Positions 18,163-58,923 of a stretch of 64,000 nt of DNA are shown here, piece after piece. Each line of letters opens with the position of its first letter. Position 1 is the stretch's first letter. The notes under the pieces were generated by a model. It saw only the letters and a list, made by a program, of their open reading frames with translations. It did no database searches and was not told where the DNA came from. The translations under genes and the position numbers were made by a program. The stretch is from Dehalococcoidia bacterium (lineage in GTDB: Bacteria; Chloroflexota; Dehalococcoidia; UBA2979), in assembly GCA_965261685.1 (NCBI GenBank), contig CBDHDI010000027.1, positions 344,808-408,807 on the forward strand. The letters are read 5' to 3'.

Positions 18163-18240
18163 GCACCTCCGAACTCCGAACTCGCAGGGGCACTATACGG
18201 GCCGCATGGGGCGCGGCAGCGGCCTGCGGCGCGGCGAGCG

Positions 18241-19080: not shown

Positions 19081-19146
19081 CCACCTCCGAGTCCGGAACC
19101 CACGGGGGCACTATACGGGCGGCGAGGAGCCGCTCGATGACTTCGG

Positions 19147-20421: not shown

Positions 20422-20491
20422 GACTGGAGTATGCCAGTGGTGCAGATGGCCGACGCCCCGGAACGCATGGCGGAGTCCATGCGGGCGCGGG

Positions 20492-21325: not shown

Positions 21326-21393
21326 ACACCTCCGCGCTCAGCGCCTCAGGAGCACGCTGGCGCAGCCGGTCGACTTCCCTGCCGTTGCTGCGT

Positions 21394-21903: not shown

Positions 21904-21931
21904 GGCGGTGGAGAGGCCGGCGACTGTCGTT

Positions 21932-23545: not shown

Positions 23546-23718
23546 GTCGACACGGCGACCGCAAGGAATAGTGGCCACCACTGCCCCAGCGGCAATTCGA
23601 CGCTGCTTACGAGTGGCACCAGGAACAGTGCCCCCAACACGATGAGCGCAACCCCGGCAAGTCTGTTGTTGGCCATGGCAGAGTGCCTCCGCATTCCGAG
23701 GTGCCCGTAACCAAGCAT
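23546..23718 (-). pseudogene. N-terminal fragment (2 TM helices) of a LiaF-like gene, truncated by the IS insertion
   Basis: ANNRLAGVALIVLGALFLVPLV...QWWPLFLAVAV matches the N-termini of the LiaF-like genes, then the reading frame runs into the IS right inverted repeat. Confidence 0.5.
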
Positions 23719-23784
23719 AGCCCAGAGGCTGAAGACGCCGGGTTGCCTGCATGGACGCGGACCGTGCGTGACCCGCGACGCGGG

Positions 23785-24624
23785 TCAGACGGGGGTGTTC
23801 GCCGCCAGGTCGAAGGCGTCGAGCAGTTCCTCGGCGCCCGCCTCCACCTGGTGCTTTCGCTCCGGGTGGGTGATCGCGTAGAGCTCGTTCTCGCGGATCG
23901 CATGCAGCACGCGACGTCCGACCTCGAGCGGGCCGATCACGCGCTCGCCCTCGAGGCGGCCCGGCCGCTCCCATGTCTGCGGCCCGCCGTGCTCGGCCGG
24001 CCGGTTGCGCCCGGCCTGCCAGATGCGCGTCTCGACGCCGCCGGGGCAGAGCACCGAGACGCCGATGCCACTCCCGGCCAGCTCGGCGCGGAGGTCCCGG
24101 CTCATCGCCACGATCGCGAACTTCGAGGCGCGGTAGGCGGTGATCTCCCATCCACCGCCCGCAAGCAGGCCGCCGCCGAGGGACGAGGTGTTGACCACGT
24201 GCGCCTCGCCGCCGCTCTCGGCCACCCGGGCGCGCATCCGCGGCACGAAGGTGTTGATCGCGTGCACGACGCCGAAGAGGTTGACGTCGAGGATCCAGCG
24301 CCAGCTATCGAGGCTCTCCGGTCCGATCGGCGTGTGGCCAACCACGCCCGCGTTGTTGCAGAGCACGTCGACGCCGCCGTAGCGTTCGTCGCAGCGGTCG
24401 GCGAGCGCCTCGACGGCCGCGACATCGCTCACGTCGACGGTCTCGGCGATCGCCTCACCGCCCGCGGCGGTAGTCTCCGCCGCCACCGCCTCGGCGGCGT
24501 CCGACTCGACATCGGCGACCACGACGCGCATGCCCTCGCCGGCGAGTGCGAGCAGGATCCCGCGGCCGATGCCGCTGCCGCCCCCGCTGACCAGCGCCAC
24601 GCGACCCTCGAGCTCCCGCATCAT
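23785..24624 (-). CDS. SDR-family NAD(P)-dependent oxidoreductase (paralogue D)
   Basis: Same motifs and high identity to A-C. Confidence 0.85.
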   Translation of the reverse strand: MMRELEGRVALVSGGGSGIGRGILLALAGEGMRVVVADVESDAAEAVAAETTAAGGEAIAETVDVSDVAAVEALADRCDERYGGVDVLCNNAGVVGHTPIGPESLDSWRWILDVNLFGVVHAINTFVPRMRARVAESGGEAHVVNTSSLGGGLLAGGGWEITAYRASKFAIVAMSRDLRAELAGSGIGVSVLCPGGVETRIWQAGRNRPAEHGGPQTWERPGRLEGERVIGPLEVGRRVLHAIRENELYAITHPERKHQVEAGAEELLDAFDLAANTPV

Positions 24625-24814
24625 GCACCTCCTCGCGCAGAACCAGCGGAGGCACTATACGAGGCGTGGCGAGGCCGGGGACGGCGGGCTGCGGGCGAGC
24701 CGTCGGCCCGCAGCCCGCGAGCAGCGCTTGCCTCCGCCCCGGGGCGCCCTCGCTGACAGGACATGGGCCGGGGAGTAATAAACCGAGTGGTTATTAAACC
24801 GGATGGTGTAGCAC

Positions 24815-28362: not shown

Positions 28363-29337
28363 TCAGCTCTGACTCGGTATCCCGAGAGCGACGAGGAGGC
28401 GCGCCCGGAACGACTCCCAGTCCGACCCCTCGGCGGCGCTGATCTGAGCGTAGTCGAAGAACTGGGTGGTCGACGGCGACTCGCGGGTGATCCGGTCGCG
28501 ATCGAGGCCCATCAACGCGATCAGGGTCCAGCGATGTTCAAAGTGAGCCTGCCGAGCCTTGATGTGGCTCTTCTCGGCCTCGCCGACGCGGTTGTGGGCG
28601 TTGGAAATATCGCTGCCACCCTTGATCTCCATTGCAACCTTGGGCTCGCGCCCGCCCTCGATTACTTCGTAGATTCGTACGTCGGGATCACTCGAGAACT
28701 CGATAGCCACGGGGCGATCAGCTGCGTTGCGCAGGCGAAGGTGCGTCTTGGACTTAAACTCCAGGAACTCCCCGGCTATCGCGCGGATACGCTCGTGGAC
28801 GACGAGGACTGCGTCACTTCCGATCGCCACGTTTCGCTGTCCTTGGAGTGTTGGGCCGAGTGTCAGCAGCGCCAGGTCCTGGAGGTCCCGATCCGTGAAC
28901 GAGAACATCGCGTCGGCGAGTCTGCTCAAAGCGTCCGCCATGGTGCGGCAGAGTTCCGGAATCTCGGCGTCCCGGTCAGGGGTCAGGACGCCGTTGACTT
29001 CTGCGCCCTCGAAGCGCTGGTAGCCGTAGGTCTGTCGCCACGCCTTGCGCGAGATACCAAGCAGCATCCGGTAGTAGCCGATGAGCGTCGGCCTGGCGCG
29101 GATGACGCTGGGCACGGGGAACACCCGCTCGCCACGGATCCCGAGCGCGGCGAGCCGGGTCAGTGGCCCGTCCGCCACGAACTCGGCCAGTTCGCGGTCT
29201 ACGGTCCGCGCGCCTGCGGCTTCGACGGCCTCAGCAACGCCCTCCTGGAGGTACAGCGGGCGGAGCGCCAGCAGCGAGTCGAACAGATGGATCGCGATGT
29301 CTGGTTCGAGCTTCTCAAAGTTGCCCTGAGTCGTCAC
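28363..29337 (-). CDS. putative type II restriction endonuclease (324 aa), translationally coupled to the upstream methyltransferase
   Basis: GTG start overlaps MTase TGA stop (GTGA at 29334-29337); PD-(D/E)xK-like DVRIYEV...EIKGG; size and gene order resemble CCCGGG-type Cfr9I/XmaI/XcyI systems (inference). Confidence 0.55.
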   Translation of the reverse strand: MTTQGNFEKLEPDIAIHLFDSLLALRPLYLQEGVAEAVEAAGARTVDRELAEFVADGPLTRLAALGIRGERVFPVPSVIRARPTLIGYYRMLLGISRKAWRQTYGYQRFEGAEVNGVLTPDRDAEIPELCRTMADALSRLADAMFSFTDRDLQDLALLTLGPTLQGQRNVAIGSDAVLVVHERIRAIAGEFLEFKSKTHLRLRNAADRPVAIEFSSDPDVRIYEVIEGGREPKVAMEIKGGSDISNAHNRVGEAEKSHIKARQAHFEHRWTLIALMGLDRDRITRESPSTTQFFDYAQISAAEGSDWESFRARLLVALGIPSQS

Positions 29338-30234
29338 AGCAGCGTCGCGGTGGCTTCCGCCTCGAATCGCCGCCGGGCGATCTCCAGGTACGCTGGCTGA
29401 AGCTCGATACCGAGGAAGCGCCGACCTTGGCGCGCCGCTTCGATTCCTACCGTGCCGGATCCGAAGAACGGGTCGAGGATTACGTTTCCGCGCTCGCTTG
29501 CGAGGGCGATGCAGGGGCGGATGAGTTCGGGCGGGAACGTCGCGAAGTGGGCGCCAGGGAACGGGCGCGTCGGGACATCCCAAACTGTCCGGAGGTTGCG
29601 ATCGTTCTCGCCGCGGACGGCCGTGTTGTCGTAGAGGTAGCGCTCGGACTTCGAGAACAGGAACAGGTACTGCGTGTGATCGCGTCGGACGGTCCCTGAC
29701 TGATTCCGGCATACAGTTCGGCTTGTTCCAGACGATGTCCGACCGCAGATACCAGCCCGCATTCTGCAGAGCGAACGCAACGAGCCAGGGGATGCCGACG
29801 AGATCCTTGGGCTTCAGGCCTTTCGGCGTGGGCGGGCGCGTGTCCATCGCCCGCACGGGGTTCTTGCGGTCCGCGTCGCGCCACTTGCGCCCACCGGACG
29901 TGTATGAATCCCCGAGGTTCAGCCAGAGCGTCCCGTCGGAGCGTGTCACTCGATGGACCTCAGTGAAGATGGCGGCGAGCGTAGCCACGTAGTCGCGCGG
30001 ATCGTCCTCAAGGCCGATCTGTCCAGCTGCGCCGTAGTCGCGCAATCCCCAGTAGGGGGGCGACGTGATCGTTGTCTGAACGAAGTCGCCGGGCAACCGG
30101 GACAGGATCGTCCGTGCATCGCCGAGCAAGCCGATTGAAGCCCAACGCTCCGGCGGCAACACATCGCTGGCGAGCGATGCGACGCTGCCGTTCAGCGCTC
30201 CAAATTCGCCCCAGTCAACTCTCATCGCGCCCAC
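29334..30234 (-). pseudogene. beta-class N4-cytosine/N6-adenine DNA methyltransferase (motif IV SPPY N-terminal, motif I DPFFGSGT C-terminal) split by a frameshift near 29700
   Basis: N-terminal 178 codons in one frame (…ESVRDRPTRSHA) and C-terminal 148 codons in another (…RRDHTQYLFLFSKSERY…DPFFGSGT); total 901 nt is not a multiple of 3. Confidence 0.7.
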
Positions 30235-30276
30235 CCTGCGGCGCTAACAATAGCAGAATGGGTGTTCTATCGCTAG

Positions 30277-33500: not shown

Positions 33501-34163
33501 GCCGTACTTGAAGATCCGCGCCTCGCGGGTCCAGAGGTCCATGATGCCGCCCTCGTTGACGAGGTCGTCGGCGACGGACTGGATGAAGCAGGCGTGCGGC
33601 TGCGGGCGCTCGTAGGCGCTCGTCGACTGGCGCACCTCGCCGCGCTCCGGGTCGAAGTAGGAGTGGCCCTGCGAGGGGCCGGCGATGCCGTAGGCCCAGT
33701 GCAGGCCGGTGTTGAACCACTGCGGCGAGTTGGGCGCGGCGCGCTGCGTCGCCATCATCAGGATCAGCTCGTCATGGAAGGCGCGGGCGTCTTCCTCGCT
33801 GTCGAAGTAGCCGTGCTTCCAGCCCCAGTAGGTCCAGGTGCCGGCGAGGCGGTGGAAGACCTGGCCCGCGTCGCTCTCGCCGCCGGAGTCGTCGGAGCCC
33901 GCGGCGGGCTCGGAGCGCCAGAGCCACTCCGGCACGCCGTCCTCCTCGAGGGCGACGAGGTCGTCGGCGATGCCGGTCTTGCGGAAGTACTTCTGCGCCA
34001 TGATGTCGACGGCGACCTGCGACCAGCCGGCGGGCATGCGGATGCCGGCCGCCTCGAAGACGGCCGACCCGTCGGGGTTGACGATGCGCGAATCCCTGGG
34101 CGCGAAGGCGACTCCTTCGAGCGGATCCTGACCCGAGGTGGTGAAGTGTCGTTCGATGCGCAT
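30516..34163 (-). CDS. nrdJ: adenosylcobalamin-dependent (class II) ribonucleotide reductase
   Basis: Class II RNR core motifs, C-terminal Cys-rich zinc ribbon CPECG...[13 protein letters not shown]; start taken at MRIERHF. Confidence 0.9.
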
Positions 34164-35715: not shown

Positions 35716-37079
35716 CGCTCTTCGGGCGAGGGGAGCATGAACCGCAGCATCAGCAGGCCGATCAGCCCCGCCACGACCGAGGCGAGAAAGATGCCGACCT
35801 TGGCCTGCGTCAGCAGCGCCTCCTCAACGAACGACAGCTCGGTCACGAACAGCGCCACCGTGAAGCCGATGCCGGCGACCAATCCCGTCGCGAAGACGCC
35901 GGGCCAGGTGACGCCGGACGGCAACTCGGCCCCGAGGCGCACGGCGAGCCAGGTCGCGATCGTGACCCCGATGGGCTTGCCGATGAGCAGCCCGAGCCCG
36001 ACGCCGAGCGCGAGGGACGATGAGGCAGCTTCCTGGAACGCCCCGCCGCGCAGATCGACGCCGGCGTTCACGAAGGCGAAGAGCGGGACGACGAGGAACG
36101 CCGACCACGGCAGCAGGCGGTGCTCGATGCGGTCCAGCGGAGAGATCGCCTGCTCGCTGAGGTCGCTCAGCGTGAGCAGGGCGCCGACCCGGTCGTGGTG
36201 CGCGGGCTCCTCGCTGGGCGCGGACTCGCTGGCGCGGATGCGGCTGAGCAAGGCCTCGGCAAGATCCGGGAGCGCGCCGCGGCGGTACCAGGGCTGCAGG
36301 GGCGTCATCAGCCCCAACGCGACGCCGAGGATGGTTGGATGGACGCCGGATTGGTGCGCCGCCATCCAGCCGATGAGTCCGACCGCGAGATAGAGCGGCA
36401 CCAGCTTGATGCCGTTGAAGTTCATCAGCATCACAAGGGCGAGCATCGCGACCGTGAGCGCGAGTGCCGCGAGGTCGATGTTGTCCGTGTAAAACACGGC
36501 GATGACGGCGATCGCCCCGATGTCGTCGACGATCGCGAGGGCGAGCAGCAGCACCTTCAGCCCGGTGGGAACCCGCGACCCGACGAGCGTCACGACGCCG
36601 ACGGCGATGGCGATGTCGGTCGCCATCGGGATCGCCCAGCCCTGGCGGGCGGTTTCGCCATCGACGAGGGCGAGGAAGATGATGACGGGGACGATCATCC
36701 CGCCCGCCGCAGCGGCGATCGGCGCCCAGACCTTGCGCCCTCCGGACAGCTCGCCCACGACGACCTCGCGCTTGATCTCCATCCCGACGACGAAGAAGAA
36801 GATCACCATCAGGCCGTCGTTGACCCACTCCTTCAGCCCGGCTTCAAGGTGGAAGAACCCGGCGTTGATGGCGATGTGGTGATGGATGAAGTCTTCGTAG
36901 AGGCCGGAGAGTGGCGTGTTGGCGGCGATCAGTGCGAACAGCACCGCGCTGGTGATGGCGATGCCGCTGGCAGCCTCAGTCCGGCCGAATTCCTGGAAGG
37001 GGCGGACGAGGCGGATGATGCGCGCGCGCCGCTCGGCCCGCGCATGGTTCAGCGCCACGTCGTCGACCGGTTGGCTCAT
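35712..37079 (-). CDS. nhaA: Na+/H+ antiporter NhaA
   Basis: NhaA-family TM pattern and conserved acidic pair region; 4-bp overlap with pepP. Confidence 0.9.
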   Translation of the reverse strand: MSQPVDDVALNHARAERRARIIRLVRPFQEFGRTEAASGIAITSAVLFALIAANTPLSGLYEDFIHHHIAINAGFFHLEAGLKEWVNDGLMVIFFFVVGMEIKREVVVGELSGGRKVWAPIAAAAGGMIVPVIIFLALVDGETARQGWAIPMATDIAIAVGVVTLVGSRVPTGLKVLLLALAIVDDIGAIAVIAVFYTDNIDLAALALTVAMLALVMLMNFNGIKLVPLYLAVGLIGWMAAHQSGVHPTILGVALGLMTPLQPWYRRGALPDLAEALLSRIRASESAPSEEPAHHDRVGALLTLSDLSEQAISPLDRIEHRLLPWSAFLVVPLFAFVNAGVDLRGGAFQEAASSSLALGVGLGLLIGKPIGVTIATWLAVRLGAELPSGVTWPGVFATGLVAGIGFTVALFVTELSFVEEALLTQAKVGIFLASVVAGLIGLLMLRFMLPSPEER

Positions 37080-37100
37080 GGGATCGGCATCGCTTCTGTG

Positions 37101-37304
37101 CTAGCCGGCGAGGCGGTAGACGCGCTTGCTGCCGTCGCTGCTGACGACGATGCTGCGCCCGCGCTTGAGCGTGCGCAGCGCCGTGGCGAGGTGCGCGGCC
37201 TCGACATCGGGGATGCGCTTCGCGAGGTCGGCCTTGCTCTGGTCCTCGCCCTCTGCGAGGGCCTCGAGGATCTGCTGTTCCAGTTCCTGGGCGATGATCG
37301 CCAT
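37101..37304 (-). CDS. small putative winged-helix DNA-binding protein (67 aa)
   Basis: wHTH-like pattern (KADLAKRIPDVEAAHLATALRTLKRGRSIVVSSDGSKRVYRLA). Confidence 0.4.
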   Translation of the reverse strand: MAIIAQELEQQILEALAEGEDQSKADLAKRIPDVEAAHLATALRTLKRGRSIVVSSDGSKRVYRLAG

Positions 37305-37403
37305 GCCGTTCTCCCGGACTTGTCGCGGCGTCTGCGCACAGTCTGCCGAGCGCGCGGCGCTCGGTCCAGCGGCGCGGGGCGGGTGCGCCTTCCGGCCAGC
37401 GGT

Positions 37404-37478
37404 TGGCGCCCTCGGGAGGACTCGAACCTCCGCACAGGGATTAGGAATCCCATGCTCTGTCCCCTGAGCTACGAGGGC
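37404..37478 (-). tRNA. tRNA-Arg (anticodon CCT), CCA encoded
   Basis: Manual cloverleaf: acceptor GCCCUCG/CGAGGGC, U8, anticodon loop UUCCUAA, T-loop TTCGAGT. Confidence 0.85.
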
Positions 37479-37571
37479 GCTCCTTCCAATTTATGCGCCG
37501 TCGGCCTCGAACGCACTTTCCCGCGCTTGGCCAAGCTCGAGGGGGAGTCGTCCTATGTGGAGGCGGCGTAC

Positions 37572-38197
37572 CTATCTGGAGGCCGCGTAGTCGGTGTCAT
37601 CGTGCACACGCTCGTAGTCCTCACGCGAGAGCCAGTGGCACCAGAGATTCTGACTCTTGATGCTGAGTCTTTGCCCGAAGCGGCCAGCGCGCCATCCCGC
37701 GACCTCTACTTGGGTCTCGCGGTCTCCATCAAGCACCTCGTCGATGGCGGGAATCAGATCGGTGTCGGCGGAGCACACAACTCCCACGTCGTACTGGCCC
37801 TTGTACGCGAGAAGCGCAATGTCGAGCGCCATCCTCACGTCGATCCCCTTCTCCTGTGGCCGCTGACCGTCGGCGTTGTCAGGCCACCCGTACGGGTATC
37901 TCAGTTGGCGCGTGAACACGTGGCAGCCTCCCGCTCCCAAGCCTGACATTGGAGGACGTTCGCCCGGTGTGCCGTTGGTTGCAGGTACGCGTCAGGGCGT
38001 CCCGTGTACAGCCTGACTTCTGCCAGCGTCCGACCGGCGTCGCGAGAGGACAGCAGTTCACCCAGAGTCCACGGGTGAAACTGTCCGAACCTGTATGGGT
38101 CGATCGCATCGTCGAAGAATGCTCGGCGCGCGCCCCGGTAGAAGTTCTGGGCGTCCACGAAGACGATGACGCGGCTCATAGTGAAACCTTCAGACAA
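37572..38197 (-). pseudogene. NYN/LabA-like (PIN-fold) nuclease domain gene split by a frameshift (ORFs 37901-38197 and 37572-37949)
   Basis: N-terminal VIVFVDAQNFY and C-terminal DVRMALDIALLA...VVCSADTDLIP are NYN hallmarks but lie in different frames overlapping by about 50 nt. Confidence 0.6.
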
Positions 38198-38234
38198 AGC
38201 AAAACCCCGCCAGCTCCCGAAGGAGCGGCGGGGA
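38188..38234 (-). terminator. putative intrinsic terminator downstream of the halogenase gene
   Basis: GC-rich hairpin ccccgccgctcc-ttcg-ggagctggcgggg followed by UUUUGCUUUG on the minus strand. Confidence 0.4.
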
Positions 38235-38295
38235 GGATTGACGCAAGTATCTAGTGGACGATGCCCGAAGTCAATGTGGTCGACGCGCAGCTACG

Positions 38296-39903
38296 TCAGC
38301 GGCCGCGCGAGCGGCGGCGGCGTTCCGCGCGGCTGAGCCTCGGCGGGCGCGGCGGCGGCGGGGGCTGGGAGGCGACCTCGGGGGCTGAGGAGGCCTGCTC
38401 CAGGTAGCGGGCGTGCGGGATCGCGTGGCGCACGAAGCGGTCGCACTTCGCGCGCTGCTCGCGGCGGGCGCGGTTCGCCTCGTCCCAGAGGCCGTAGTAG
38501 TCCATCTCGCGCCTCGCGACCGCGGAGTCGAGCAGGCCGAGGCCGTCCAGTGTGAAGAACCACAGCTTCATGTCGATCGCCCCGAAGTACGGGTCGAGGT
38601 CGGTCGTGAGCGGGGTTTTCACCCGCCACAGGTCGAGGCGCTCGCGGGCCGAGTCGTTCATCGAGATCGATCGCCAGAACTCGGTGTCGTCGCGTCCGCC
38701 CTGGTAGTGCATTACCAGGAAGTCGCGGAAGTCGTCGTACATGCGCCCCATGCGCCGGTTGTAGCGATCGAGGATCGGCGTGGCGTCGAAGTCGAAGTGC
38801 TCCGTGAGGTACTCCTGCATCAGCACCAGCAACTGCACGAGCTGGCCGTGGATCGAGGTGGACTCGAGCGGCTCGCTGAAGGCGCCGGAGAGGCCGATCG
38901 CGACGCAGTTCTTGATCCAGAGCCGGCGGAAGCGTCCGCTCGCGATGCGGATGTCGCCCCAGGGCTCGATAGGGTGGCCGAGCACGGCCTCGACCTCGGC
39001 CTGCGCCTCTTCCGGGCTGATGAAGTCGTCGCAGTAGGCGTAGCCGCAGCCCAGCCGCTCCTGCGTCGGGATCTGCCACAGCCAGCCGGCGGAGAGCGCC
39101 CGGGCGTGCGTGTACGAGGGGATCGAGGCGCCCTCCTCGTGCGCCACGGAGAAGGGCAGCGCGCGGTTGACCGGCAGGTGCTCGGCGTACGAGATCCACT
39201 CCTCCTCGTATGCCCCGCCGATGATCAGCTTGCGGAAGCCCGAGCAGTCGACGAAGAAGTCGCCCTCGATCTCGCGGCCGTCGGCGAGCGTGACGCTGCG
39301 CACGTGCCCGTTGTCCGGCTCGATGTTGACGGCCTCGACCGTGCCCTCGATGTGCGTGACGCCCTCGCACTTCGAGCGCAGGTAGGCGCCGACGATGTGC
39401 GTGTCGAAGTGGTAGGCGTAGTCCCAGGCGCTCTCTTCGGGCTGTCCGGGCGGGCGGCTGTAGGGCGCGAGCTGGTCGAGCATGAGGCGCGAGTTGAGCA
39501 CGTTTGTCCAGGCCGGTTCGCCCTCGGCGACGGAGGCGGCGAAGAAGTAGGGGTACGTCTCCGGGGGCACCGCGGGGATCCCGAGCTGGCGGTCGTCGTT
39601 GAGCGGACCGAGGTAGTACGAGCCGTCGCCCGTCCAGTTGCGGTGCAGGATGCCGAGCTTGAACGAGGCCTTCGTCTCGCGCAGGAACTCGCGCTCGTTC
39701 GAGAGGTTGCGGATGAAGGTCGTGAACAGGCCGGTGGTCGCCTCGCCGACGCCGACGATCGGGATGTCGGGCGCCTCGACGACCGTGATCTCGAGGTCGC
39801 CCGCTCCCCGGCCGCGCTTCCAGAAGCGCGAGAGGTGGATGGCGGAGAGCCAGCCGGCGGTCCCGCCGCCGACGATCACGATCTTCTTGATCTGCGTGTG
39901 CAT
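38296..39903 (-). CDS. flavin-dependent halogenase (tryptophan halogenase family)
   Basis: GGGTAGW FAD motif, WxWxIP motif (AGWLWQIP), FSEPLESTS, about 535 aa; ATG at 39903. Confidence 0.8.
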   Translation of the reverse strand: MHTQIKKIVIVGGGTAGWLSAIHLSRFWKRGRGAGDLEITVVEAPDIPIVGVGEATTGLFTTFIRNLSNEREFLRETKASFKLGILHRNWTGDGSYYLGPLNDDRQLGIPAVPPETYPYFFAASVAEGEPAWTNVLNSRLMLDQLAPYSRPPGQPEESAWDYAYHFDTHIVGAYLRSKCEGVTHIEGTVEAVNIEPDNGHVRSVTLADGREIEGDFFVDCSGFRKLIIGGAYEEEWISYAEHLPVNRALPFSVAHEEGASIPSYTHARALSAGWLWQIPTQERLGCGYAYCDDFISPEEAQAEVEAVLGHPIEPWGDIRIASGRFRRLWIKNCVAIGLSGAFSEPLESTSIHGQLVQLLVLMQEYLTEHFDFDATPILDRYNRRMGRMYDDFRDFLVMHYQGGRDDTEFWRSISMNDSARERLDLWRVKTPLTTDLDPYFGAIDMKLWFFTLDGLGLLDSAVARREMDYYGLWDEANRARREQRAKCDRFVRHAIPHARYLEQASSAPEVASQPPPPPRPPRLSRAERRRRSRGR

Positions 39904-39931
39904 GGGCAGAGTGTAGCGCGGCAGCCGCGCG

Positions 39932-41122
39932 CTACCGCGGCGCGCGCGGCTCCAGCCGCACGCCCGCCTCGGAGTCGGGGTCGGCGACCAGCGCCGCCTC
40001 GCCGCCGAGCCAGGCGAGGATCGCGTCGCCGGCCAGCACGCCGCGCCAGCCCTCGAGCAGCGGCAGCGGCGGACGGGCGTCGCGGTCGCCCTCGATCCAC
40101 CAGCGCACGACCGCCTCGATCTCGCTGCGCGGCCCGAGGAAGCGCGAGGCGATCCCGGCCTCCAGCGCGAGCGCGCGGACGAGCCCGTGCAGCGCCGCAG
40201 CCCAGACCTCGCCCGAGGGCGGCAGCGGCGCGCGCGAGGGCTCACGTTCGATCGGGCGCGCCGCGCCGTGCTCGATTGCTTCTATCAAGCGCCTGCCGTG
40301 GCGTCGCACCATGCCCTCGTCGACGCCGCGGACGGCGCGCAGGCCGTCCTCGCTCGACGGCCCGGCACGCGCCAGTTCGAGCATCGATCGGTCGTTGAGC
40401 ACGCGCGAGGGCGGGCGGTTGCCGCGGGCGGCCTCGCGCTCGCGCCAGGCGGCGAGCTCGCGCAGCGCGCCGCGCTCCGGGCCGTCGAGGCGCGCCCAGC
40501 CCTTCACGCGGCGGTAGCTCTCGTCGGGCGCGGGCCGCCGCCAGGCCGTGGCGGCGAGCTGCTCGCACTCCTCGAGCGCCCACGCGAGCCGGTCGCTACC
40601 GGTGAGGCGGGCGTGCAGCTCGCCCCAGACGCGCGCGAGGTAGCGCACGTCGTCGAGGGCGTACGCGAGTTGCTTCTGCGAAAGCGGCCGGCGCAGCCAC
40701 TCCGTGTACTGCGAGCCCTTGTGCAGCCGCACGCCGAGCACGCTCTGCACGAGTGGGGCGTAGCCGATCTGGTCGCCGTAGCCCGCGAAGGCGGCCGCGA
40801 TCTGCGTGTCGCGGACGGCGCGGCCCGCCGTCGCGTAGCTGCCTGCGAGGATCGCGAGGTCCGCCTGCGCGGCGTGCACGATCGTCTCGAGGCCCTCGTC
40901 GGCGACGAGCCCGGCGAAGGGCGTCACATCGACCTCGAGCGGGTCGATGGCGGCGAGTTCGGGGTCGTCGGGGTCGCCCCAGGCGACCTGCACGAGCGCC
41001 AGTTCGGGGATGTAGCGGCCCTCGGGCACGAACTCGAGGTCGAAGGCGAAGCTGCCGGCGTCGCGAATACGCTCGACGATCTCGTCGAGTTCGCGTGCGG
41101 TTGTTGCGAGGACGCCGTCCAT
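39932..41122 (-). CDS. rnd: ribonuclease D (3'-5' exonuclease + HRDC)
   Basis: DEDDy exonuclease motifs (FAFDLEF..., HAAQADL), HRDC-like C-terminus; start at MDGVLATT. Confidence 0.8.
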   Translation of the reverse strand: MDGVLATTARELDEIVERIRDAGSFAFDLEFVPEGRYIPELALVQVAWGDPDDPELAAIDPLEVDVTPFAGLVADEGLETIVHAAQADLAILAGSYATAGRAVRDTQIAAAFAGYGDQIGYAPLVQSVLGVRLHKGSQYTEWLRRPLSQKQLAYALDDVRYLARVWGELHARLTGSDRLAWALEECEQLAATAWRRPAPDESYRRVKGWARLDGPERGALRELAAWREREAARGNRPPSRVLNDRSMLELARAGPSSEDGLRAVRGVDEGMVRRHGRRLIEAIEHGAARPIEREPSRAPLPPSGEVWAAALHGLVRALALEAGIASRFLGPRSEIEAVVRWWIEGDRDARPPLPLLEGWRGVLAGDAILAWLGGEAALVADPDSEAGVRLEPRAPR

Positions 41123-41157
41123 GAGCTGTCCGGACGTTCGCGAGCGGTCGGGTTGGG

Positions 41158-41233
41158 TGGTGGAGGCGAGGGGACTCGAACCCCTGACCTCGGCATTGCG
41201 AACGCCGCGCTCTCCCAACTGAGCTACGCCCCC
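41158..41233 (-). tRNA. tRNA-Ala (anticodon CGC), CCA encoded
   Basis: Acceptor GGGGGCG with G3:U70, anticodon loop UUCGCAA. Confidence 0.85.
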
Positions 41234-41313
41234 ACGAAATCCGAGTATGAGACGCCCACTCGCGAGCGGCAAACGGCGCGCGTCGCGCCGCGAGTGGAGG
41301 CGAACGCCGCCGA

Positions 41314-41820
41314 TCAGCCCTCGATCAGCCCCGGCAGCAGCTCGATCCGCATCCGGCCCGCGGCCGGGTCGACCTCGAGGATCACCTCGGGGATGGCGGG
41401 AATCAGCAGGTCGCGCGCGCCCTCGCGGCGCACGAGGTAGACGTCGTTCGCGCCGGTGCGCAGCACCTCGACGAGCTCGCCGAGGGCGTCCCCGTCCGCG
41501 TCGACGATGGTGAGGCCGACGAGGTCGTGGACGTAGAACTCGCCCTCCGGCAGCGCGGGCAGCTCCTCCTCGGCGATCTCGATCAGCGAGCCGCGCAGCA
41601 CGTCGGCGGCGTTCGCGTCCTGGTAGCCCTCGAAGACGATGCAGGGATAGCCGCGCGGGTAGACGACCTCGAGGATGCGCCGCGGCTCGCCGCGCACGAA
41701 CAGCACGGCGCCCGGCTCGAAGCGCTGCGGGTTCGAGCTGAGCGCCGTGACCTTGACGTGCCCGCGCAGCCCCCAGGTGCTGTTGATGAGCCCGACGGCG
41801 ATGCGGCCCTCGGCGCCCAC
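41314..41820 (-). CDS. rimM: ribosome maturation factor RimM
   Basis: RimM N-terminal beta-barrel motif (RIAVGLINSTWGLRGHVKV) and PRC domain; GTG start chosen (ORF extends to 41943). Confidence 0.7.
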   Translation of the reverse strand: MGAEGRIAVGLINSTWGLRGHVKVTALSSNPQRFEPGAVLFVRGEPRRILEVVYPRGYPCIVFEGYQDANAADVLRGSLIEIAEEELPALPEGEFYVHDLVGLTIVDADGDALGELVEVLRTGANDVYLVRREGARDLLIPAIPEVILEVDPAAGRMRIELLPGLIEG

Positions 41821-41950
41821 GGTGTCGGCAGCGTCGGGCGCGCTATCGCGGCGGCGGGCAGGTTGGGCAGTGCGGGCGCTGGAACGGGAGCCGGCGGGGC
41901 CGCGCCGCGGGCGCGTCCGGGACGGCCGGGACGGCGAAGGCACGGTCGTG

Positions 41951-42178
41951 CTACTCGATGTTGAGCGAGGCGCGCACGCCGGTGCGGATGCTGGCGACGT
42001 GCAGCAGCGAGCGCATCGCGTTCACCACGCGGCCCTCGCGGCCGATGATGCGCCCCTTGTCCTCCTCGGCGCATTCGAGGTGGAAGACGATCTGGTCGCC
42101 GCGCTGCTCCTCCTCGACGACAATCTCGTCGGGCCGGGAGGCGAGTGCGCGCGCGAGGTACTCGATCAGTTCTTTCAT
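41951..42178 (-). CDS. KH-domain RNA-binding protein (UPF0109/YlqC family)
   Basis: GRIIGREGRVVNAMR KH motif; conserved position between rpsP and rimM. Confidence 0.85.
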   Translation of the reverse strand: MKELIEYLARALASRPDEIVVEEEQRGDQIVFHLECAEEDKGRIIGREGRVVNAMRSLLHVASIRTGVRASLNIE

Positions 42179-42191
42179 CGGTGTCGTTTCG

Positions 42192-42512
42192 CTATGCGTC
42201 CTCGGCGGCGGCTGCGGCGGCAGCCTCGCGCTCGGCGCGGCTGGGCTTGGTCAGGCGCTGCGGCGGTGGCTCGTCGATCAGGCCCTCGCGGTGGAGCAGG
42301 CGGTGCACGGTCTCGCTGGGGCGGGCGCCCACGGAGAGCCAGTGGCGGACGCGATCTTCCTTGAAGACCAGCTCCTTCGGCTCCGAGCGCGGGTTGTAGT
42401 GCCCGATGATCTCGACGAAGTCGCCGTCGCGCGGCGCGCGCTGGTCGGCGACGACCACGCGGTAGTGCGGGGCCTTGGAGCGGCCGGTGCGGCGGAGCCG
42501 GATACGGAGCAC
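42192..42512 (-). CDS. rpsP: 30S ribosomal protein S16
   Basis: [23 protein letters not shown]... canonical S16. Confidence 0.95.
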
Positions 42513-42984
42513 GCGTTTGCCTCTCGCTCTCGCCCGCCATCGCGGGCGCTGTGAGCAGCCTACCGCGCGGGCGCGCTAACGTCAGCCTCGCGGTTGGTGG
42601 GCGATTACCCCCTCGCCCTCTGGGAGAGGGTTGGGGTGAGGGTCCGGCTGCCCCGTCGCCCGCGGTCGACACGTGACGTACGCGATGCCACGCTGGGTCT
42701 CGCTGCCGAGCGACGAGTGGAGTCCGGCCTGTGCCAACCCCGCCCCGAGAGCGACCCCCGGGCGACCCCGGCGACGTCTACTGCGACCGCCTCCAGATCT
42801 GGCTGCCCGACACCAGCTCACCGGAGTTCGCTGCCGAGGCGCATCGCCAGTCGCTGCTGGCGGCACGCAGCCCGCACGCCGAGGACGACCAGGCTTTCGT
42901 CGATTCCATCTCCGACGCGTTCGCCGACTGAGGAGGGGCCCGCGCGCCCTCGGCCCCGGCAGCGCGTCACAGCCTAGCGCTGCG

Positions 42985-43836
42985 TCAGAGTCCTTCGAAC
43001 TCCGCGAAGCTATCCGAGCCGTCGGCCTGGATGGCGTACCGAAATCGGAGTTCATCCTCAGGGTGGCCTCGGCTGTCGTCCTTGATCCCGGTCACGTGCA
43101 AGGCGGCATAGAAGCCTGCGGTGTTGCGGAGGACAGCGACCCCCCCTAACCCGACAGTTCTGGCAGGCGACGTGTAGTCGAGCGTCTCGGCATTGCTCAC
43201 CGACGAGATGGATGTGCATCTAGGCGCGAGTGCGACACCGTGGATCGATGCGGGATCGTTGTACAAGTGTATGGCGGTGTTGCTGCCCTTGCTCCACTTG
43301 GTCTCGAACTCCAGAGTCCCGTTCCCTATGACATATCTGCCGTTGTAGCTGCTGTAGTCGAACACTGCTTCGCCGGTCAAAGAACTCATTCGCGGTGGCG
43401 GTACTTCGTGAGCCTTGCCGGAGAGTCGAGGGACGCCGACCTTCTCGGCAATCATCGCTGCAAGGCCCGCTGGTGTGTGCTCCTCGGCGCGTTCGTAGAG
43501 GACATCACTCGGAAGACCTGGAACGCGTGTGTCGTCAAAGCGCACTGGCAGGATGTACTCCCTTGACTCTTGCACGGCTCGGCTCAGCGCTGCCCTTCTC
43601 TCGTGGATGGGCCACGCGCGCTCGACATAGTCCTTCGAAATGAACATAACGACGTACCCGGATCCCCGAGCGAAGACCTCCTCGAAGACCTCAGAACCGT
43701 GGGCCCCCCACAGTTGGACTCGCTCGAACCCGTCGTAGAAGACGGGTATGCCGCGAGCCTGAAGTGCGCGTGCTACTCCTTCCGCATAGGGACGTTGTGC
43801 GCCAGCAAAAGACAGCGCGACTTGGTACCGCTCCAT
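42985..43836 (-). CDS. TIR-domain protein with about 130-aa C-terminal domain of unknown function
   Basis: Bacterial TIR pattern (YQVALSFAGAQR...GIPVFYD...VVMFISKDYVERAWPIHE with conserved catalytic-position Glu); start at MERYQV. Confidence 0.65.
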   Translation of the reverse strand: MERYQVALSFAGAQRPYAEGVARALQARGIPVFYDGFERVQLWGAHGSEVFEEVFARGSGYVVMFISKDYVERAWPIHERRAALSRAVQESREYILPVRFDDTRVPGLPSDVLYERAEEHTPAGLAAMIAEKVGVPRLSGKAHEVPPPRMSSLTGEAVFDYSSYNGRYVIGNGTLEFETKWSKGSNTAIHLYNDPASIHGVALAPRCTSISSVSNAETLDYTSPARTVGLGGVAVLRNTAGFYAALHVTGIKDDSRGHPEDELRFRYAIQADGSDSFAEFEGL

Positions 43837-43885
43837 GGACCCCACCGTCACATCTGAGAGTCGGACCGGATTGCCACTCGCCGCC

Positions 43886-45220
43886 CTACAGCCCGAGCAG
43901 CCGGCCGAGGCCGCCCGCACCCTTGCCCGAGGTCATCGCCACCATCAGCTTCTTCGCCTCGCGGTACTGGTTGAGCAGGCGGTTCACGTCCGCCGGCTGC
44001 TTGCCGGACCCGGCGGCGATGCGGCGTCGGCGCGAGCCGTCGATGATCTCGGGGCGGCGGCGCTCGCCCGGGGTCATCGAAAGGATGATCGCCTCGTTGT
44101 GCTTCCAGAAGTCCTCGCCGACATCCGGGATGGCGAACTGATCCTTCATCCGGCCCGCGCCCGGCAGCATGTCGAGCAGGCCCGAGATCGGGCCCATCTG
44201 CTGCATCTGCTGCATCTGCGTGAGGAAGTCCTCGAGGTCGAACTGGCCGCGCTGCATGCGCCGCGCGACGTCCTTCATGTCGCGCTCGCCGATCGTCTCC
44301 TTCGCCTTCTCGACCAGCGACACCACGTCGCCCATGCCGAGGATGCGCGAGGCGAAGCGGTCCGGGTGGAAGGCTTCCAACGCCTCGAGGCGCTCGCCGG
44401 TGGTGATGAACTTGATCGGCAGCCCGGTCACCTGGCGCACGGACAGCACGGCCCCGCCGCGCGTGTCGGAGTCGACCTTGGTGACGACGATGCCGGTGCC
44501 CTCGACGGCGTCGTCGAAGTCGCGGGCGAGCGTCACCGCCTCCTGCCCCGTCATCGCATCGACGACGATCAGCACCTCGGTCGGGTCGATCTCGTCGGCG
44601 AGGTCCGCCAGCTCGTCGGCGAACTCGTCGTCGAGGGCGACGGCGCCGCGGGTGTCGACGATGACCGCGGTCGCGCCGGTGCGCTGCGCCTCGGCGAGCG
44701 CGCGCTTGCCGACCTGCGGCGCGGGCGCAGCGGTCTCCTCGGCGTAGACGGGCACGCCGATCTGATCGCCGAGGACGCGCAGCTGCTCGGAGGCGGCGGC
44801 GCGCTGGAAGTCGGTGGCGACGAGCAGGGGGCGCAGGCCGTCCTTCTGCAGGTGCAGCGCGAGCCGCGCCGCGAGGGTGGTCTTGCCCGAGCCCTGCACA
44901 CCGCAGACGAGGATCTTCGTCGGCCCTCGCTGCGCGCGCAGCAGCGGCTCGTTGTTGCCGCCGAGGATCTCGACCAGCTCGTCGTTGACGGCGCCGATCA
45001 CCTGCTGTCCGGGCGTGATCGACTGCAGCAGCGCGCTGCCGGAGGTGCGCTCCCGCACCCGCGCGACGAACTCGCGCACGACCTGGAAGTTCACGTCCGC
45101 CTCGAGCAGCGCGATGCGCACCTCGCGCAGCGCCGTATCGAGGTCGTCCTCGGTAATCCGCCCGCGGCTGCCGAGGCGGCCGAAGGTGGCCTGGAGTCGG
45201 GAGCTCAGGGTTTCCAGCAT
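43886..45220 (-). CDS. ffh: signal recognition particle protein Ffh (SRP54)
   Basis: N, G (GTPase motifs GVQGSGKTT) and Met-rich M domains. Confidence 0.95.
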   Translation of the reverse strand: MLETLSSRLQATFGRLGSRGRITEDDLDTALREVRIALLEADVNFQVVREFVARVRERTSGSALLQSITPGQQVIGAVNDELVEILGGNNEPLLRAQRGPTKILVCGVQGSGKTTLAARLALHLQKDGLRPLLVATDFQRAAASEQLRVLGDQIGVPVYAEETAAPAPQVGKRALAEAQRTGATAVIVDTRGAVALDDEFADELADLADEIDPTEVLIVVDAMTGQEAVTLARDFDDAVEGTGIVVTKVDSDTRGGAVLSVRQVTGLPIKFITTGERLEALEAFHPDRFASRILGMGDVVSLVEKAKETIGERDMKDVARRMQRGQFDLEDFLTQMQQMQQMGPISGLLDMLPGAGRMKDQFAIPDVGEDFWKHNEAIILSMTPGERRRPEIIDGSRRRRIAAGSGKQPADVNRLLNQYREAKKLMVAMTSGKGAGGLGRLLGL

Positions 45221-45283: not shown

Positions 45284-46156
45284 ATGGTTAACGAATCAAG
45301 CGATAGTACAAATCCGTCGCGAGGCAGGGTGCCAAAGCGCCTTATATTCATCAGTCACGCGCACGCCGACCGGAAACTTGCGCAGGCGCTGCAGCGCCTC
45401 GTGCGTGCCGTCTTCGCGGGCGTCGTTGAGCCGTACGCTTCGTCGGATCCGACGCCAGGTGGCGGAATCCAGCCGGGGGAGGAGTGGGATCCGGCGATCC
45501 ACGAGCACTTGGACCGCGCTGAGGCAGTTTGGGTATTGGCCACGCCGACATCGATCACTCATCCGTGGCTCTACTGGGAGGCGGGAATAGGCCGAGCCAG
45601 AAGCCCGCACGGCGTGACCGTCCTCCGGGTGGGACTCGCTCAGGAGGAAATCCCCAGCCCGCTAAGCGCGTTCCAAGGCTTTGATGGCTTGGCCGAGGGC
45701 GACGGCGGCATGGGAGAACTGCTCAAGAAGGTCGCGGGTCAGATTGACATGGCACCTACTGCGGCACTTTTGGCCGAAGAGGTGAAGACCTGGGTCGCCG
45801 CAGCCGAAGCACACCAACCTGATGAACCAGCCTCCGAGGCGGGCTTGTCACTCACACCCGAGCACGTCAACAAGATTGAAGCTTTGATGTCCCGTATGGA
45901 ACAGTCATCCCGGGCGGTGGAGGAGTTGGTACGCATCGAAGTACACCGCCGAATCGCCCGCGAGGTTGACATGCGGATGCGTCCGCCTGTAGCGGCACCT
46001 CCCCCTCTCGAACAGCCCGTCCCCGTCGCGTCGCCTAGCCGCTTCGCGCCATCTCCCGCAGCGGTGCCGCCGGCCCCGGCCGTGCCGCGTGGTCGGCTTG
46101 GCTTGGGATTCGGCGGCGAAGATCAGTCATTGGACACTGATGATCTTCCCTTCTGA
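45284..46156 (+). CDS. TIR-like (DUF1863/TIR_2-like) domain protein with low-complexity C-terminal half
   Basis: RLIFISHAHADRKLAQAL...AVWVLATPTSITHPWLYWEAGIG pattern. Confidence 0.45.
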   Translation: MVNESSDSTNPSRGRVPKRLIFISHAHADRKLAQALQRLVRAVFAGVVEPYASSDPTPGGGIQPGEEWDPAIHEHLDRAEAVWVLATPTSITHPWLYWEAGIGRARSPHGVTVLRVGLAQEEIPSPLSAFQGFDGLAEGDGGMGELLKKVAGQIDMAPTAALLAEEVKTWVAAAEAHQPDEPASEAGLSLTPEHVNKIEALMSRMEQSSRAVEELVRIEVHRRIAREVDMRMRPPVAAPPPLEQPVPVASPSRFAPSPAAVPPAPAVPRGRLGLGFGGEDQSLDTDDLPF

Positions 46157-58801: not shown

Positions 58802-58923
58802 AGGTGTTAGCGGTTCTAGCGGATCGCGCCGCGAACCTCAAAGCGGACGCTCGCCCGGACCGGACGTGCGGGCGGCCCGAACGCTTGTATCGTGGCGGCG
58901 AGGCGTGGCCTGGAGGAGCAGCG

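Follow-up and report, generated by a model that had tools for sequence, protein, structure and literature searches.

A conserved flavin-dependent halogenase-family gene between RNase D-like and tRNA genes in Dehalococcoidia

A 64,000-nt stretch of a Dehalococcoidia genome (hereafter the window) carries a gene for a flavin-dependent halogenase directly behind genes for tRNA-Ala and an RNase D-like protein. What does a halogenase do among housekeeping genes, how did it come to lie there, and is its substrate tryptophan, as the label "tryptophan-type" in the initial annotation suggests?

Identity of the gene and layout of the locus

The window gene is a real, intact member of the flavin-dependent halogenase family with the PrnA/RebH fold. 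Its product matched Pfam PF04820 (Trp_halogenase) over residues 7-440 with an E-value of 4.8e-105 and 352.5 bits (cut-off 21). Among solved structures it matched RebH, Thal, PyrH and BrvH with E-values of about 1e-70, RebH being the best relative by sequence (4e-72). The AlphaFold2 model (pLDDT 90.3, pTM 0.88) was compared with known structures by Foldseek and matched Thal, RebH, PyrH, BorH, Xcc4156 and BrvH with E-values of about 1e-42 and TM scores of 0.78-0.83. The ORF was intact in 12 of 12 sequences (the window and 11 related loci). An exact database look-up of the window halogenase and of clade cluster P0003 found no record.

The initial annotation described a 535-aa minus-strand ORF with the motifs GGGTAGW, AGWLWQIP and FSEPLESTS, and all of these sequence-level statements were confirmed. 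GGGTAGW occupies residues 12-18 and contains GxGxxG (G12-G17); G12-G14, T15 and W18 were invariant across 71 relatives. AGWLWQIP spans residues 272-279 with WxWxIP as W274-L-W276-Q-I278-P279, of which W274, W276 and P279 were invariant in the same set. FSEPLESTS (residues 342-350) includes the catalytic Glu, E347 in EPLESTS (PrnA E346, RebH E357), which was at least 90% conserved in the 71 relatives. The halide-binding backbone pair is T349-S350, the same Thr-Ser pair as in the BrvH halide site (T351-S352; PMC5945002). The catalytic Lys is K82 in ASFKLGI, aligned with ASYKVAI of RebH and ATCKLGI of BrvH (K79 in PrnA/RebH), and it was invariant in the 71 relatives. Loss of the catalytic Lys or of other active-site residues had been named beforehand as the mark of a non-halogenating relative; K82 and E347 are both present.

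The features of the locus are listed in Table 1. The halogenase gene had been placed 28 bp behind rnd, and rnd 35 bp behind tRNA-Ala, all on the minus strand; both gaps are exact. The rnd product has both the DEDD 3'-5' exonuclease and the HRDC domains, but it scored 275.3 bits against TIGR01388, just below the cut-off of 298.95, so it is best called RNase D-like. The terminator-like hairpin reported behind the halogenase was also found, as a G+C-rich 12-bp stem (38233..38205) followed by the T-run TTTTGCTTTG, about 60 bp past the stop codon. It was kept in 8 related loci, and the alignment folded into a 12-pair stem with one compensatory change from C-G to U-A.

Table 1. Coordinates of features in the window
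Feature	Position	Strand	Remarks
tRNA-Ala(CGC)	41158..41233	minus	ARAGORN; 35 bp upstream of rnd
rnd, RNase D-like 3'-5' exoribonuclease gene	39932..41122	minus	396 aa; Pfam DNA_pol_A_exo1 (1.4e-27) and HRDC (4e-17)
Invariant 13-nt block CGCGCTACACTCT in rnd-halogenase spacer	39908..39920	minus	TACACT at -12..-7 from the A of ATG
Flavin-dependent halogenase gene	38296..39903	minus	535 aa and stop codon; Pfam PF04820
Clade-specific C-terminal extension, residues 506-535	38299..38388	minus	Pro/Ala/Ser-rich linker, then basic motif
Basic motif LSRAERRRRSRGR, residues 523-535 of halogenase	38299..38337	minus	
Sigma-70-like promoter TTGACT-17 nt-GATACT	38246..38274	minus	Between halogenase stop codon and hairpin
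Intrinsic-terminator-like hairpin	38195..38233	minus	CCCCGCCGCTCC, loop TTCG, GGAGCTGGCGGGG, then TTTTGCTTTG
NYN-domain gene, frameshifted in window	37572..38179	minus	Frames 38179..37901 and 37949..37572; Pfam NYN on second
tRNA-Arg(CCT)	37404..37478	minus	ARAGORN; Rfam tRNA 62.6 bits; closes the rnd-halogenase pair downstream

The block CGCGCTACACTCT in the rnd-halogenase spacer was identical in 12 of 12 sequences, whereas the rnd stop codon and the remaining spacer varied. Its TACACT is a candidate -10 box and could give a leaderless halogenase transcript. The same geometry was also seen at ffh, uvrC and one MFS start (4 of 39 ORFs; TANNNT background 0.00085 per base), and it was not found at the annotated starts of three paralogues (L012, L015 and L018). 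Downstream of the halogenase, TTGACT-17-GATACT was the sole promoter-like match in 5.4 kb, with 0.2 expected. In 8 loci GATACT was identical and the first hexamer was TTGACT or TTGAAT, with a spacer of variable sequence. The promoter-plus-hairpin element matched no RNA family in Rfam. An Rfam search of 36900..43000 returned just the two tRNAs, a sub-threshold tmRNA match on the tRNA-Ala gene and a chance miRNA match.

The NYN-domain gene is part of a variable segment between the halogenase and tRNA-Arg. Three loci (L004, L005 and L009) have intact copies of about 203-206 aa; other loci lack the segment. In about 54 ORFs spread over the 64-kb window, Pfam detected no flavin reductase (Flavin_Reduct), NRPS, PKS or tailoring gene, in agreement with the initial annotation, and the Pfam annotation already computed for an orthologous locus likewise had none.

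Conservation and inheritance

In 11 of 11 related Dehalococcoidia loci, rnd is followed by the halogenase gene, and the order tRNA-Ala, rnd, halogenase, variable segment, tRNA-Arg recurs in most of them. Of 10 related loci scanned, 8 have the same tRNA-Ala upstream of rnd (locus L003 starts too near rnd to hold it), and 9 have tRNA-Arg behind the halogenase, L001 being rearranged. Across the 11 loci the halogenase was the more conserved of the two proteins, with 91-97% identity compared to 86-94% for rnd. The median dN/dS was 0.174 for the halogenase and 0.218 for rnd, and the halogenase GC3 of 0.94 is host-like.

The halogenase is a vertically inherited resident, under purifying selection, of a housekeeping stretch that consists of rpsP, KH, rimM, tRNA-Ala, rnd, the halogenase and tRNA-Arg. 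In the loci compared, its lineage is restricted to a narrow group of Dehalococcoidia. A horizontally acquired singleton had been suggested earlier. A recent event of this kind does not fit the rnd-halogenase pair at every related locus, the flanking tRNAs in most, the dN/dS of 0.17 and the host-like GC3.

A metagenome scan for rnd returned only distant homologues (30-55% identity, no shared synteny), and none of these 62 loci had a halogenase, a result that bears on the generality of the module and not on the date of insertion. Halogenase paralogues sit in unrelated contexts. From these two observations, the rnd/tRNA-Ala position of the halogenase looks like lineage-specific synteny rather than functional coupling.

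A stand-alone halogenase in a tRNA/RNase D setting was at first considered unusual. This view did not hold, since lone halogenases are common: among 103 flavin-dependent halogenases from 2,787 surveyed genomes, 83 were outside biosynthetic clusters (PMC8269204), and marine Dehalococcoidia have been reported to carry such enzymes (bioRxiv 10.1101/2025.05.17.654656). A lone halogenase beside housekeeping genes is unsurprising in itself.

Relatives, sister-group operons and the C-terminal tail

In a neighbour-joining tree with few characterised sequences (RebH, SttH, Th-Hal and 9luq partial and rebuilt from printed HMMER alignments, BrvH from OCR text one residue short of the published numbering), the window clade grouped with a Devosia-type group at a bootstrap of 90. 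BrvH and 9luq grouped apart from the window clade (bootstrap 100), and RebH, SttH and Th-Hal grouped together with the window clade excluded (bootstrap 100). BrvH is included in S3 Table of PMC5945002, which has 42 metagenomic genes. A phylogeny against characterised tryptophan halogenases had been proposed as a check of the annotation; in this small tree the window clade falls outside RebH, SttH and Th-Hal. Judged from these comparisons of sequence, the window halogenase belongs to a separate, uncharacterised lineage of a known family and is an ordinary new member of that family.

The closest proteins outside the clade are annotated as "tryptophan halogenase family protein" (about 513 aa) in Devosia, Sulfitobacter, Thiolinea and others, with 40-46% identity. 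They have the signatures EATT[GA], GP[LI], NRA[LM]PF and IPTQxRxGCGY in common with the window clade. The named members are Pseudomonadota, not Chloroflexota. Unlike the window protein, they lie in operons with GH4 glycosidases and Opp-type ABC transporters, and they have no C-terminal basic tail. These sugar-uptake operons could hint at a function outside classic natural-product halogenation, and further work on the link would bear on the role of the numerous orphan genes with this family name in marine bacteria.

By analogy with the sister group, the window halogenase could act on an ABC-imported compound, a glycoside or peptide, in nutrient processing, the window copy being unlinked from its transporter. 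Of six relatives sampled, five lie in operons that also encode GH4 glycosidases and an ABC importer of the SBP_bac_5/Opp type. Identity to the window protein is 40-46%, except that the Sulfitobacter plasmid copy has a score against P0013 only (49%). In Sulfitobacter the halogenase gene has a GH4 gene on either side and shares 4 bp with each. Two different paralogues of the window clade, P0005 and P0008, each adjoin an SBP_bac_5 protein, the two SBPs being 37% identical. Against this, neither a transporter nor GH4 was found within 10 kb of the window copy and its 11 orthologues, the GH4/ABC context was absent from neighbour P0118, no known chemistry joins a halogenase to GH4 substrates, and the argument spans a gap of about 45% identity. 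The literature searched offered nothing useful that connects tryptophan halogenases to GH4, to PULs, or to TonB or polysaccharide loci. We consider an imported substrate unlikely for the window enzyme.

The window clade differs from these relatives by its tail, which ends in the conserved motif LSRAERRRRSRG. Each of the eight clade clusters, P0001-P0008 (60-96% identity), has the tail, and so do the paralogues among them; none of the 50 full-length neighbours with listed ends (about 45% identity) does. The last 12 codons carry 12 or more synonymous changes and yet encode an invariant peptide. The model has residues 507-524 disordered and residues 525-533 helical. The tail was the only one of its kind among 38 window proteins. 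Two explanations for the motif were rejected. A general sorting signal was dismissed, as the motif occurred only in halogenases (window and 19 loci) and no other window protein was so basic-tailed. A by-product of a conserved DNA element was dismissed as well, as synonymous sites vary and paralogues elsewhere keep the motif.

A broader proposal is that the window protein belongs to a distinct halogenase-fold lineage whose subfamily acts on ABC-imported compounds, and that the conserved arginine-rich tail helix of the Chloroflexi members tethers the enzyme to a polyanionic partner. We know of no tested member of the halogenase family with an imported-substrate role or a tethering tail, and we regard the proposal as unlikely. 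If it were true, the translational coupling of the sister-group genes to GH4 would mean halogenase chemistry in nutrient processing and not in natural-product tailoring. Possible partners of the tail include nucleic acids (RNA or DNA), membrane lipids, polyphosphate and an acidic protein (a carrier or a reductase), and the halogenase would thereby be spatially targeted.

Substrate contacts, proposed function and host

We compared the window protein with the Trp motifs defined in PMC8269204 (Trp1, GEAT followed by I/V/F and P/S; Trp2, HxF), in which groups A and B are the free-L-Trp halogenases. The initial annotation had advised a check of the substrate-binding residues, and both contacts turned out to be replaced. 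At Trp1, GEAT is followed by T57-G58 instead of I-P (EAT-IP to EAT-TG); the sister group has T-A. At Trp2, the indole-stacking HxF is replaced by G99-P100-L101, aligned with HPF in SttH, Th-Hal and BrvH and with HSF in RebH. G99 and P100 were at least 90% conserved across the subfamily. The Trp4 loop, which in the free-L-Trp halogenases contacts the amino-acid moiety, was full length, with P-Y-F-G compared to P-Y-Y-H-G in SttH and Th-Hal, and RebH E461 aligned with a Lys, both in a region of low-confidence alignment. Since the Trp4 region partly resembles the group-B Trp halogenases, an indole- or Trp-like substrate is possible. Because the contacts to free L-tryptophan have been replaced, the enzyme most likely acts on a different free small molecule, as far as the aligned residues tell.

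RebH, PrnA, Thal, PyrH and SttH (Trp 7-, 6- and 5-halogenases) have the Pfam family, the fold (TM about 0.8), GxGxxG, the catalytic Lys, WxWxIP and the catalytic Glu in common with the window protein, and their C-terminal substrate module is of similar length. In contrast, the window protein is only 29-35% identical to them, has T-G and G-P-L in place of I-P and HxF, carries an extra 30-residue basic tail, lies outside their clade and has no partner reductase or pathway genes nearby. BrvH (Brevundimonas BAL3), the Xcc4156-type enzymes and the Pseudoalteromonas L11 halogenase (PDB 9luq) are orphan, non-Trp, indole-type halogenases. Like the window protein, the marine BrvH has a Thr-Ser halide pair and is unlike a free-Trp enzyme. 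However, BrvH keeps the indole contacts EATIP and HPF and a short, open Trp4 loop, whereas the window protein has a long loop and neither EATIP nor HPF. The pair BrvH and 9luq branches as a clade of its own (bootstrap 100), at 31-34% identity to the window protein. Only the T-S halide pair is held in common with the BrvH type (group C).

A genuine free-L-tryptophan 5-, 6- or 7-halogenase, feeding halotryptophan to a pathway encoded elsewhere, would agree with RebH, Thal and PyrH as the top solved-structure matches by sequence, with the NCBI name "tryptophan 7-halogenase" for the orthologues, and with a Trp4 loop that resembles PYYHG of SttH/Th-Hal and is not shortened as in BrvH. It does not agree with the replacement of Trp1 and Trp2, the latter by nearly invariant G99/P100, nor with an identity of about 30-35% that is equal to all characterised enzymes, the branch outside the Trp-halogenase clade and the lack of downstream pathway genes in the window. 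We consider it quite improbable, and the public name is probably wrong. The label "tryptophan-type" therefore stands at the level of the Pfam family and fails for the Trp contacts and for the branch, which lies outside both the Trp halogenases and BrvH. Of the earlier idea that a free metabolite is halogenated, a free, non-carrier-bound substrate is retained as the most reasonable reading; the Trp contacts are replaced.

The reading that we prefer, with a probability of about 0.6, is a functional FADH2-dependent halogenase of the PrnA/RebH fold with a free substrate other than Trp, vertically inherited and positioned by synteny. We infer its mechanism from the halogenase family, and its activity, non-Trp substrate, promoter and bromide preference, if any, are likewise inferred. 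A reductase encoded elsewhere would supply FADH2, which with O2 and halide would give hypohalous acid. This would pass through an internal tunnel to K82/E347 and there halogenate an electron-rich substrate held by the C-terminal module. Transcription would probably use the gene's own leaderless promoter, with read-through from rnd.

It is very unlikely that the window protein is a non-halogenating, monooxygenase-like relative or a functionless relic. Clade member P0008 has lost the EPLEST motif, so not all copies in the clade stay catalytic, and many orphan halogenases are feeble in vitro, such as BrvH on indole (PMC5945002). On the other hand, K82, WxWxIP and E347 are conserved across the subfamily, the dN/dS is below that of rnd, and every one of the 12 ORFs is intact.

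Coupling to RNA metabolism, with an arginine-rich C-terminal helix that binds RNA and acts with RNase D and the flanking tRNAs, is extremely improbable: in most of the 11 related loci the gene is next to rnd, with a tRNA gene on either side of the pair, and the terminal SRAERRRRSRGR motif of its product presumably resembles arginine-rich RNA-binding peptides, but paralogues with the same tail are in unrelated contexts, the 62 loci with rnd homologues of 30-55% identity had no halogenase, the gene appears to possess its own promoter, and no such halogenated RNA nucleoside pathway is known.

The host group of Dehalococcoidia is probably sponge-associated. Sponges are rich in brominated metabolites whose makers are mostly unknown. 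In PCR surveys, abundant sponge "tryptophan halogenase" amplicons were tied to Chloroflexi, by correlation only (PMC6644159). The locus provides a genome-resolved, strongly conserved halogenase from Dehalococcoidia that appear to live in sponges, and this enzyme is a tangible candidate to be expressed and screened for substrates. L003 and L005 are from SB066x sponge samples, and at least two of the genomes carry a halogenase paralogue.

The halogenase gene and its conservation

The window halogenase belongs to a known enzyme family, of which it is a new and well-conserved member. Further points of note are the replacement of its tryptophan-binding motifs, a basic tail that is conserved, and the sugar-operon setting of its sister group. 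The ORF with all three sequence motifs is real (Table); it matched Pfam Trp_halogenase at E 4.8e-105 in a profile search, and about 30 solved halogenases match the protein at E 1e-46 to 4e-72. The spacers of 28 bp (rnd to halogenase) and 35 bp (tRNA-Ala to rnd) are exact, and the terminator-like hairpin follows the gene as described. The RNase D-like protein encoded by rnd scored 275 bits against TIGR01388, slightly below the cut-off. When the ~54 ORFs across the whole window were scanned against Pfam, no flavin reductase, NRPS, PKS or tailoring enzyme turned up. The observation made in the initial annotation was confirmed, and its interpretation was partly supported.

Table. Features of the halogenase region and of loci compared with it (window positions unless a locus is named)
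Feature	Position	Strand	Remarks
Halogenase ORF	38296..39903	minus	535 aa; GGGTAGW (residues 12-18), AGWLWQIP (272-279), FSEPLESTS (342-350)
rnd	39932..41122		upstream of halogenase; DEDD exonuclease and HRDC domains of RNase D (Pfam)
tRNA-Ala(CGC)	41158..41233
Hairpin	38233..38195		12-bp G+C stem and T-run, 3' of halogenase stop codon
Promoter-hairpin unit	38195-38274	minus	TTGACT-17 nt-GATACT, hairpin, T-run
NYN-domain gene	37572-38179	minus	frameshifted near '…QCQAWE'
ffh, uvrC, MFS starts	45220, 54876, 61098	minus	TANNNT ends 7-8 nt before start
TIR_2-domain proteins	42985-43932; 45284-46156	minus; plus	either side of ffh
XcyI/methylase frame	28363-30243	minus	XcyI-type match at E 6.7e-78
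1,632-bp element	21921-23552		copy at L012 ~1221-2852
'tRNA-???' call	33636-33730	plus	95 nt, four-base anticodon
Dehydrogenase/MFS regions	17323-24654; 56202-58837
P0008, divergent clade member	L018 10001-11614
Operon loci of relatives	L087 7619-11975; L019, L020, L021, L086		Sulfitobacter, Devosia, Thiolinea, metagenome contigs

When one genome was scanned for each bacterial species, 10 orthologous loci were recovered (90-96% protein identity), every one in a Dehalococcoidia/Chloroflexi MAG, together with a 74% paralogue in one of the genomes holding an orthologue. An eleventh locus, L014, was found by exact look-up of protein cluster P0001. Two of the MAGs are SB0661 and SB0662 bins; because bins from these samples appear among the sponge-associated Entoporibacteria (PMC7883664), a sponge habitat of the halogenase-bearing MAGs is likely. 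Flavin-dependent halogenase genes have been reported in marine Dehalococcoidia (bioRxiv 10.1101/2025.05.17.654656), and sponge halogenase amplicons were previously tied to Chloroflexi by correlation (PMC6644159).

DNA comparison gave the common gene order RNR, pepP, nhaA, tRNA-Arg, [variable], halogenase, rnd, tRNA-Ala, rimM, KH, rpsP, [variable], ffh. It is kept in most orthologous loci; L001 is rearranged downstream of the halogenase. Across orthologues the halogenase is more conserved than rnd (91-97% versus 86-94% identity), with a median Nei-Gojobori dN/dS over 66 pairs of 0.174 compared to 0.218. Its GC3 of 0.94 is similar to that of adjacent genes. The identity, dN/dS, GC3 and kept order argue for a resident gene under purifying selection, neither a recent import nor decaying, and against the horizontally acquired singleton proposed earlier, as a recent event. 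The halogenase does not vary; variable material adjoins it, in the window a NYN gene between it and tRNA-Arg. Other junctions hold TIR, toxin-antitoxin and restriction genes. Nor is a stand-alone halogenase unusual, as had been claimed. Outside biosynthetic clusters is the rule for flavin-dependent halogenases, with 83 of 103 found there in 2,787 genomes (PMC8269204).

Active site, tryptophan contacts and C-terminal tail

The initial annotation had named loss of the catalytic Lys or other active-site residues as the point that would speak against a halogenase. No such loss was seen. K82 corresponds in the alignment to K79 of PrnA and RebH and E347 to RebH E357, and the halide site is held by T349-S350, the same Thr-Ser pair as in BrvH. 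K82, W274, W276 and P279 are unchanged throughout 71 relatives. Catalysis therefore looks intact from these residues. The AlphaFold2 model (pLDDT 90.3, pTM 0.88) superimposes on all solved family members with TM ~0.8 at 28-32% identity, and no single one is closest.

The label "tryptophan-type" holds for the Pfam family and not for the substrate contacts. Using the motif definitions of PMC8269204, we found Trp1 to be EAT-T57-G58 instead of EAT-I-P and Trp2 to be G99-P100-L101 instead of H-x-F. The Trp4 region reads PYFG versus PYYHG, and this reading is ambiguous. BrvH brominates indole and does not accept Trp; in this enzyme Trp1 and Trp2 are retained, and the Trp4 loop is short (PMC5945002). 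The window protein, in contrast, lacks the Trp1/Trp2 contacts of BrvH, so neither pattern fits it. A bootstrapped neighbour-joining tree gave three groups: the window clade with Devosia-type proteins (90), BrvH with 9luq (100), and RebH with SttH and Th-Hal (100). This tree holds few characterised sequences, three of them partial and rebuilt from printed alignments, and its BrvH sequence is OCR text one residue shorter than the published numbering. Other characterised non-Trp enzymes scored below RebH against the query (Xcc4156, 215 bits; VirX1, 183; the 5uao entry, 166), and no characterised member of the window lineage was found. Orthologues are already in NCBI under the name "tryptophan 7-halogenase", which is probably over-specific.

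In the Chloroflexi clade, all eight clusters formed at 90% identity (P0001-P0008, which span 60-96% identity and include paralogues) extend ~30 residues beyond the usual family end (…H-A-x-Y-L-E). A variable Pro/Ala/Ser linker leads into a basic end that is conserved, reading LSRAERRRRSRG[RG] in orthologues and resembling SRA[EQ]RRR in paralogues. This tail is absent from all 50 full-length neighbours (~45% identity) with listed ends. The AlphaFold2 model shows residues 507-524 disordered and 525-533 as a helix. Over the last 12 codons of the 12 orthologues the protein is invariant with at least 12 synonymous differences, so selection acts at the peptide level. Apart from the halogenases, no ORF of the window or of the 19 loci searched carries the motif, and none of the other window proteins is comparably basic at its end. 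P0008 is the most divergent clade member (60% identity). It keeps the basic tail and has NDTATT in place of EPLEST, thus lacking the catalytic Glu and halide-site residues, and may be a non-catalytic paralogue.

The rnd/tRNA setting and a putative promoter

The rnd/tRNA setting probably has no functional role. No halogenase lies near the rnd homologues (30-55% identity) of any of 62 metagenome loci, and halogenase paralogues (60-75% identity) occupy other contexts. One is followed by two BPD_transp_1 permeases and an SBP_bac_5 protein, a second adjoins DUF3179, cupin and enoyl-CoA hydratase genes, and a third has a molybdopterin oxidoreductase and a further SBP_bac_5 protein in its vicinity.

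A 13-nt block, CGCGCTACACTCT, is identical in 12 of 12 rnd-halogenase spacers; the rnd stop codon and the remaining spacer differ. It puts TACACT at -12 to -7 relative to the A of the halogenase ATG, a placement that matches the -10 box of a leaderless mRNA. We infer from this geometry that the halogenase has its own promoter. Read-through from rnd is also possible. The same geometry recurs at the starts of ffh, uvrC and one MFS gene, 4 of 39 ORFs compared to a background of 0.00085 per base for TANNNT; the hexamer ends 7-8 nt before the start codon, like in the halogenase, and the uvrC start also has GCGCTACACT in common with it. This suggests that a subset of this organism's genes use leaderless transcripts. 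No Shine-Dalgarno sequence is visible.

A good sigma-70-like promoter match lies directly upstream of the hairpin and T-run behind the halogenase. Its hexamers and the stem are kept in 8 loci with a variable spacer, including loci without the downstream NYN gene. The transcript would be only ~45 nt, starting near AAUCCUCCCC, and might act as a tiny RNA or as a leader/attenuator; Rfam gave no family match. The NYN gene, in the variable segment beside tRNA-Arg(CCT), is intact in L004, L005 and L009 (~203-206 aa) and missing from several other loci. In the window it is split, as either a pseudogene or an assembly indel.

Sugar-uptake operons of relatives and other window features

Six nearest relatives were sampled. 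Identities to the window protein were 40-46%, and the sixth, a Sulfitobacter plasmid copy, was scored only against cluster P0013 (49%). Five of the six lie in a GH4/importer operon; this context is missing at one neighbour. The operons hold one or two GH4 glycosidases of the alpha-glucosidase/alpha-galactosidase type, an Opp-type ABC importer (SBP_bac_5, two permeases, ATPase) and mostly an AraC regulator. In the Sulfitobacter plasmid copy, each end of the halogenase-family gene shares 4 bp with a GH4 gene, and the Thiolinea locus continues into galactonate-pathway genes and a GH42 beta-galactosidase. The SBP_bac_5 proteins beside two Chloroflexi paralogues share 37% identity, and neither closely resembles the Devosia-type binding protein. 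No transporter or GH4 gene lies within 10 kb of the window copy. In the literature we found nothing tying "tryptophan halogenase" to GH4 or explaining a halogenase-fold enzyme in a sugar-uptake operon. The context is a lead to the function of the subfamily and no evidence on the window copy.

The TIR_2 stretches have a G+C of 0.62-0.64 (window ~0.70) and are probably small defence islands inserted among core genes; where the first one lies, related genomes have a PemK/MazE pair or different genes. A single frame located between metE and the gene for the class II ribonucleotide reductase combines matches to an XcyI-type restriction endonuclease and to an N6/N4 DNA methylase domain; at this junction the related genome of L014 has an AbiJ-like gene. 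Antisense within the reductase coding region, ARAGORN called a "tRNA-???". Similar calls recur in L002, L006 and L011; this one is most likely a spurious hit inside conserved coding sequence.

The 1,632-bp element has imperfect terminal inverted repeats of ~56 bp and codes for a multi-HTH protein of 509 aa. It is 96.7% identical to a copy beside a halogenase paralogue in OZ250164.1 and is probably an active insertion sequence common to these MAGs. Four paralogous short-chain dehydrogenase genes lie amid MFS transporters in two regions, with two adjacent family III CoA-transferase genes. Genes for CoA-transferase, enoyl-CoA hydratase and acyl-CoA dehydrogenase are also abundant at the paralogue loci L012 and L015.
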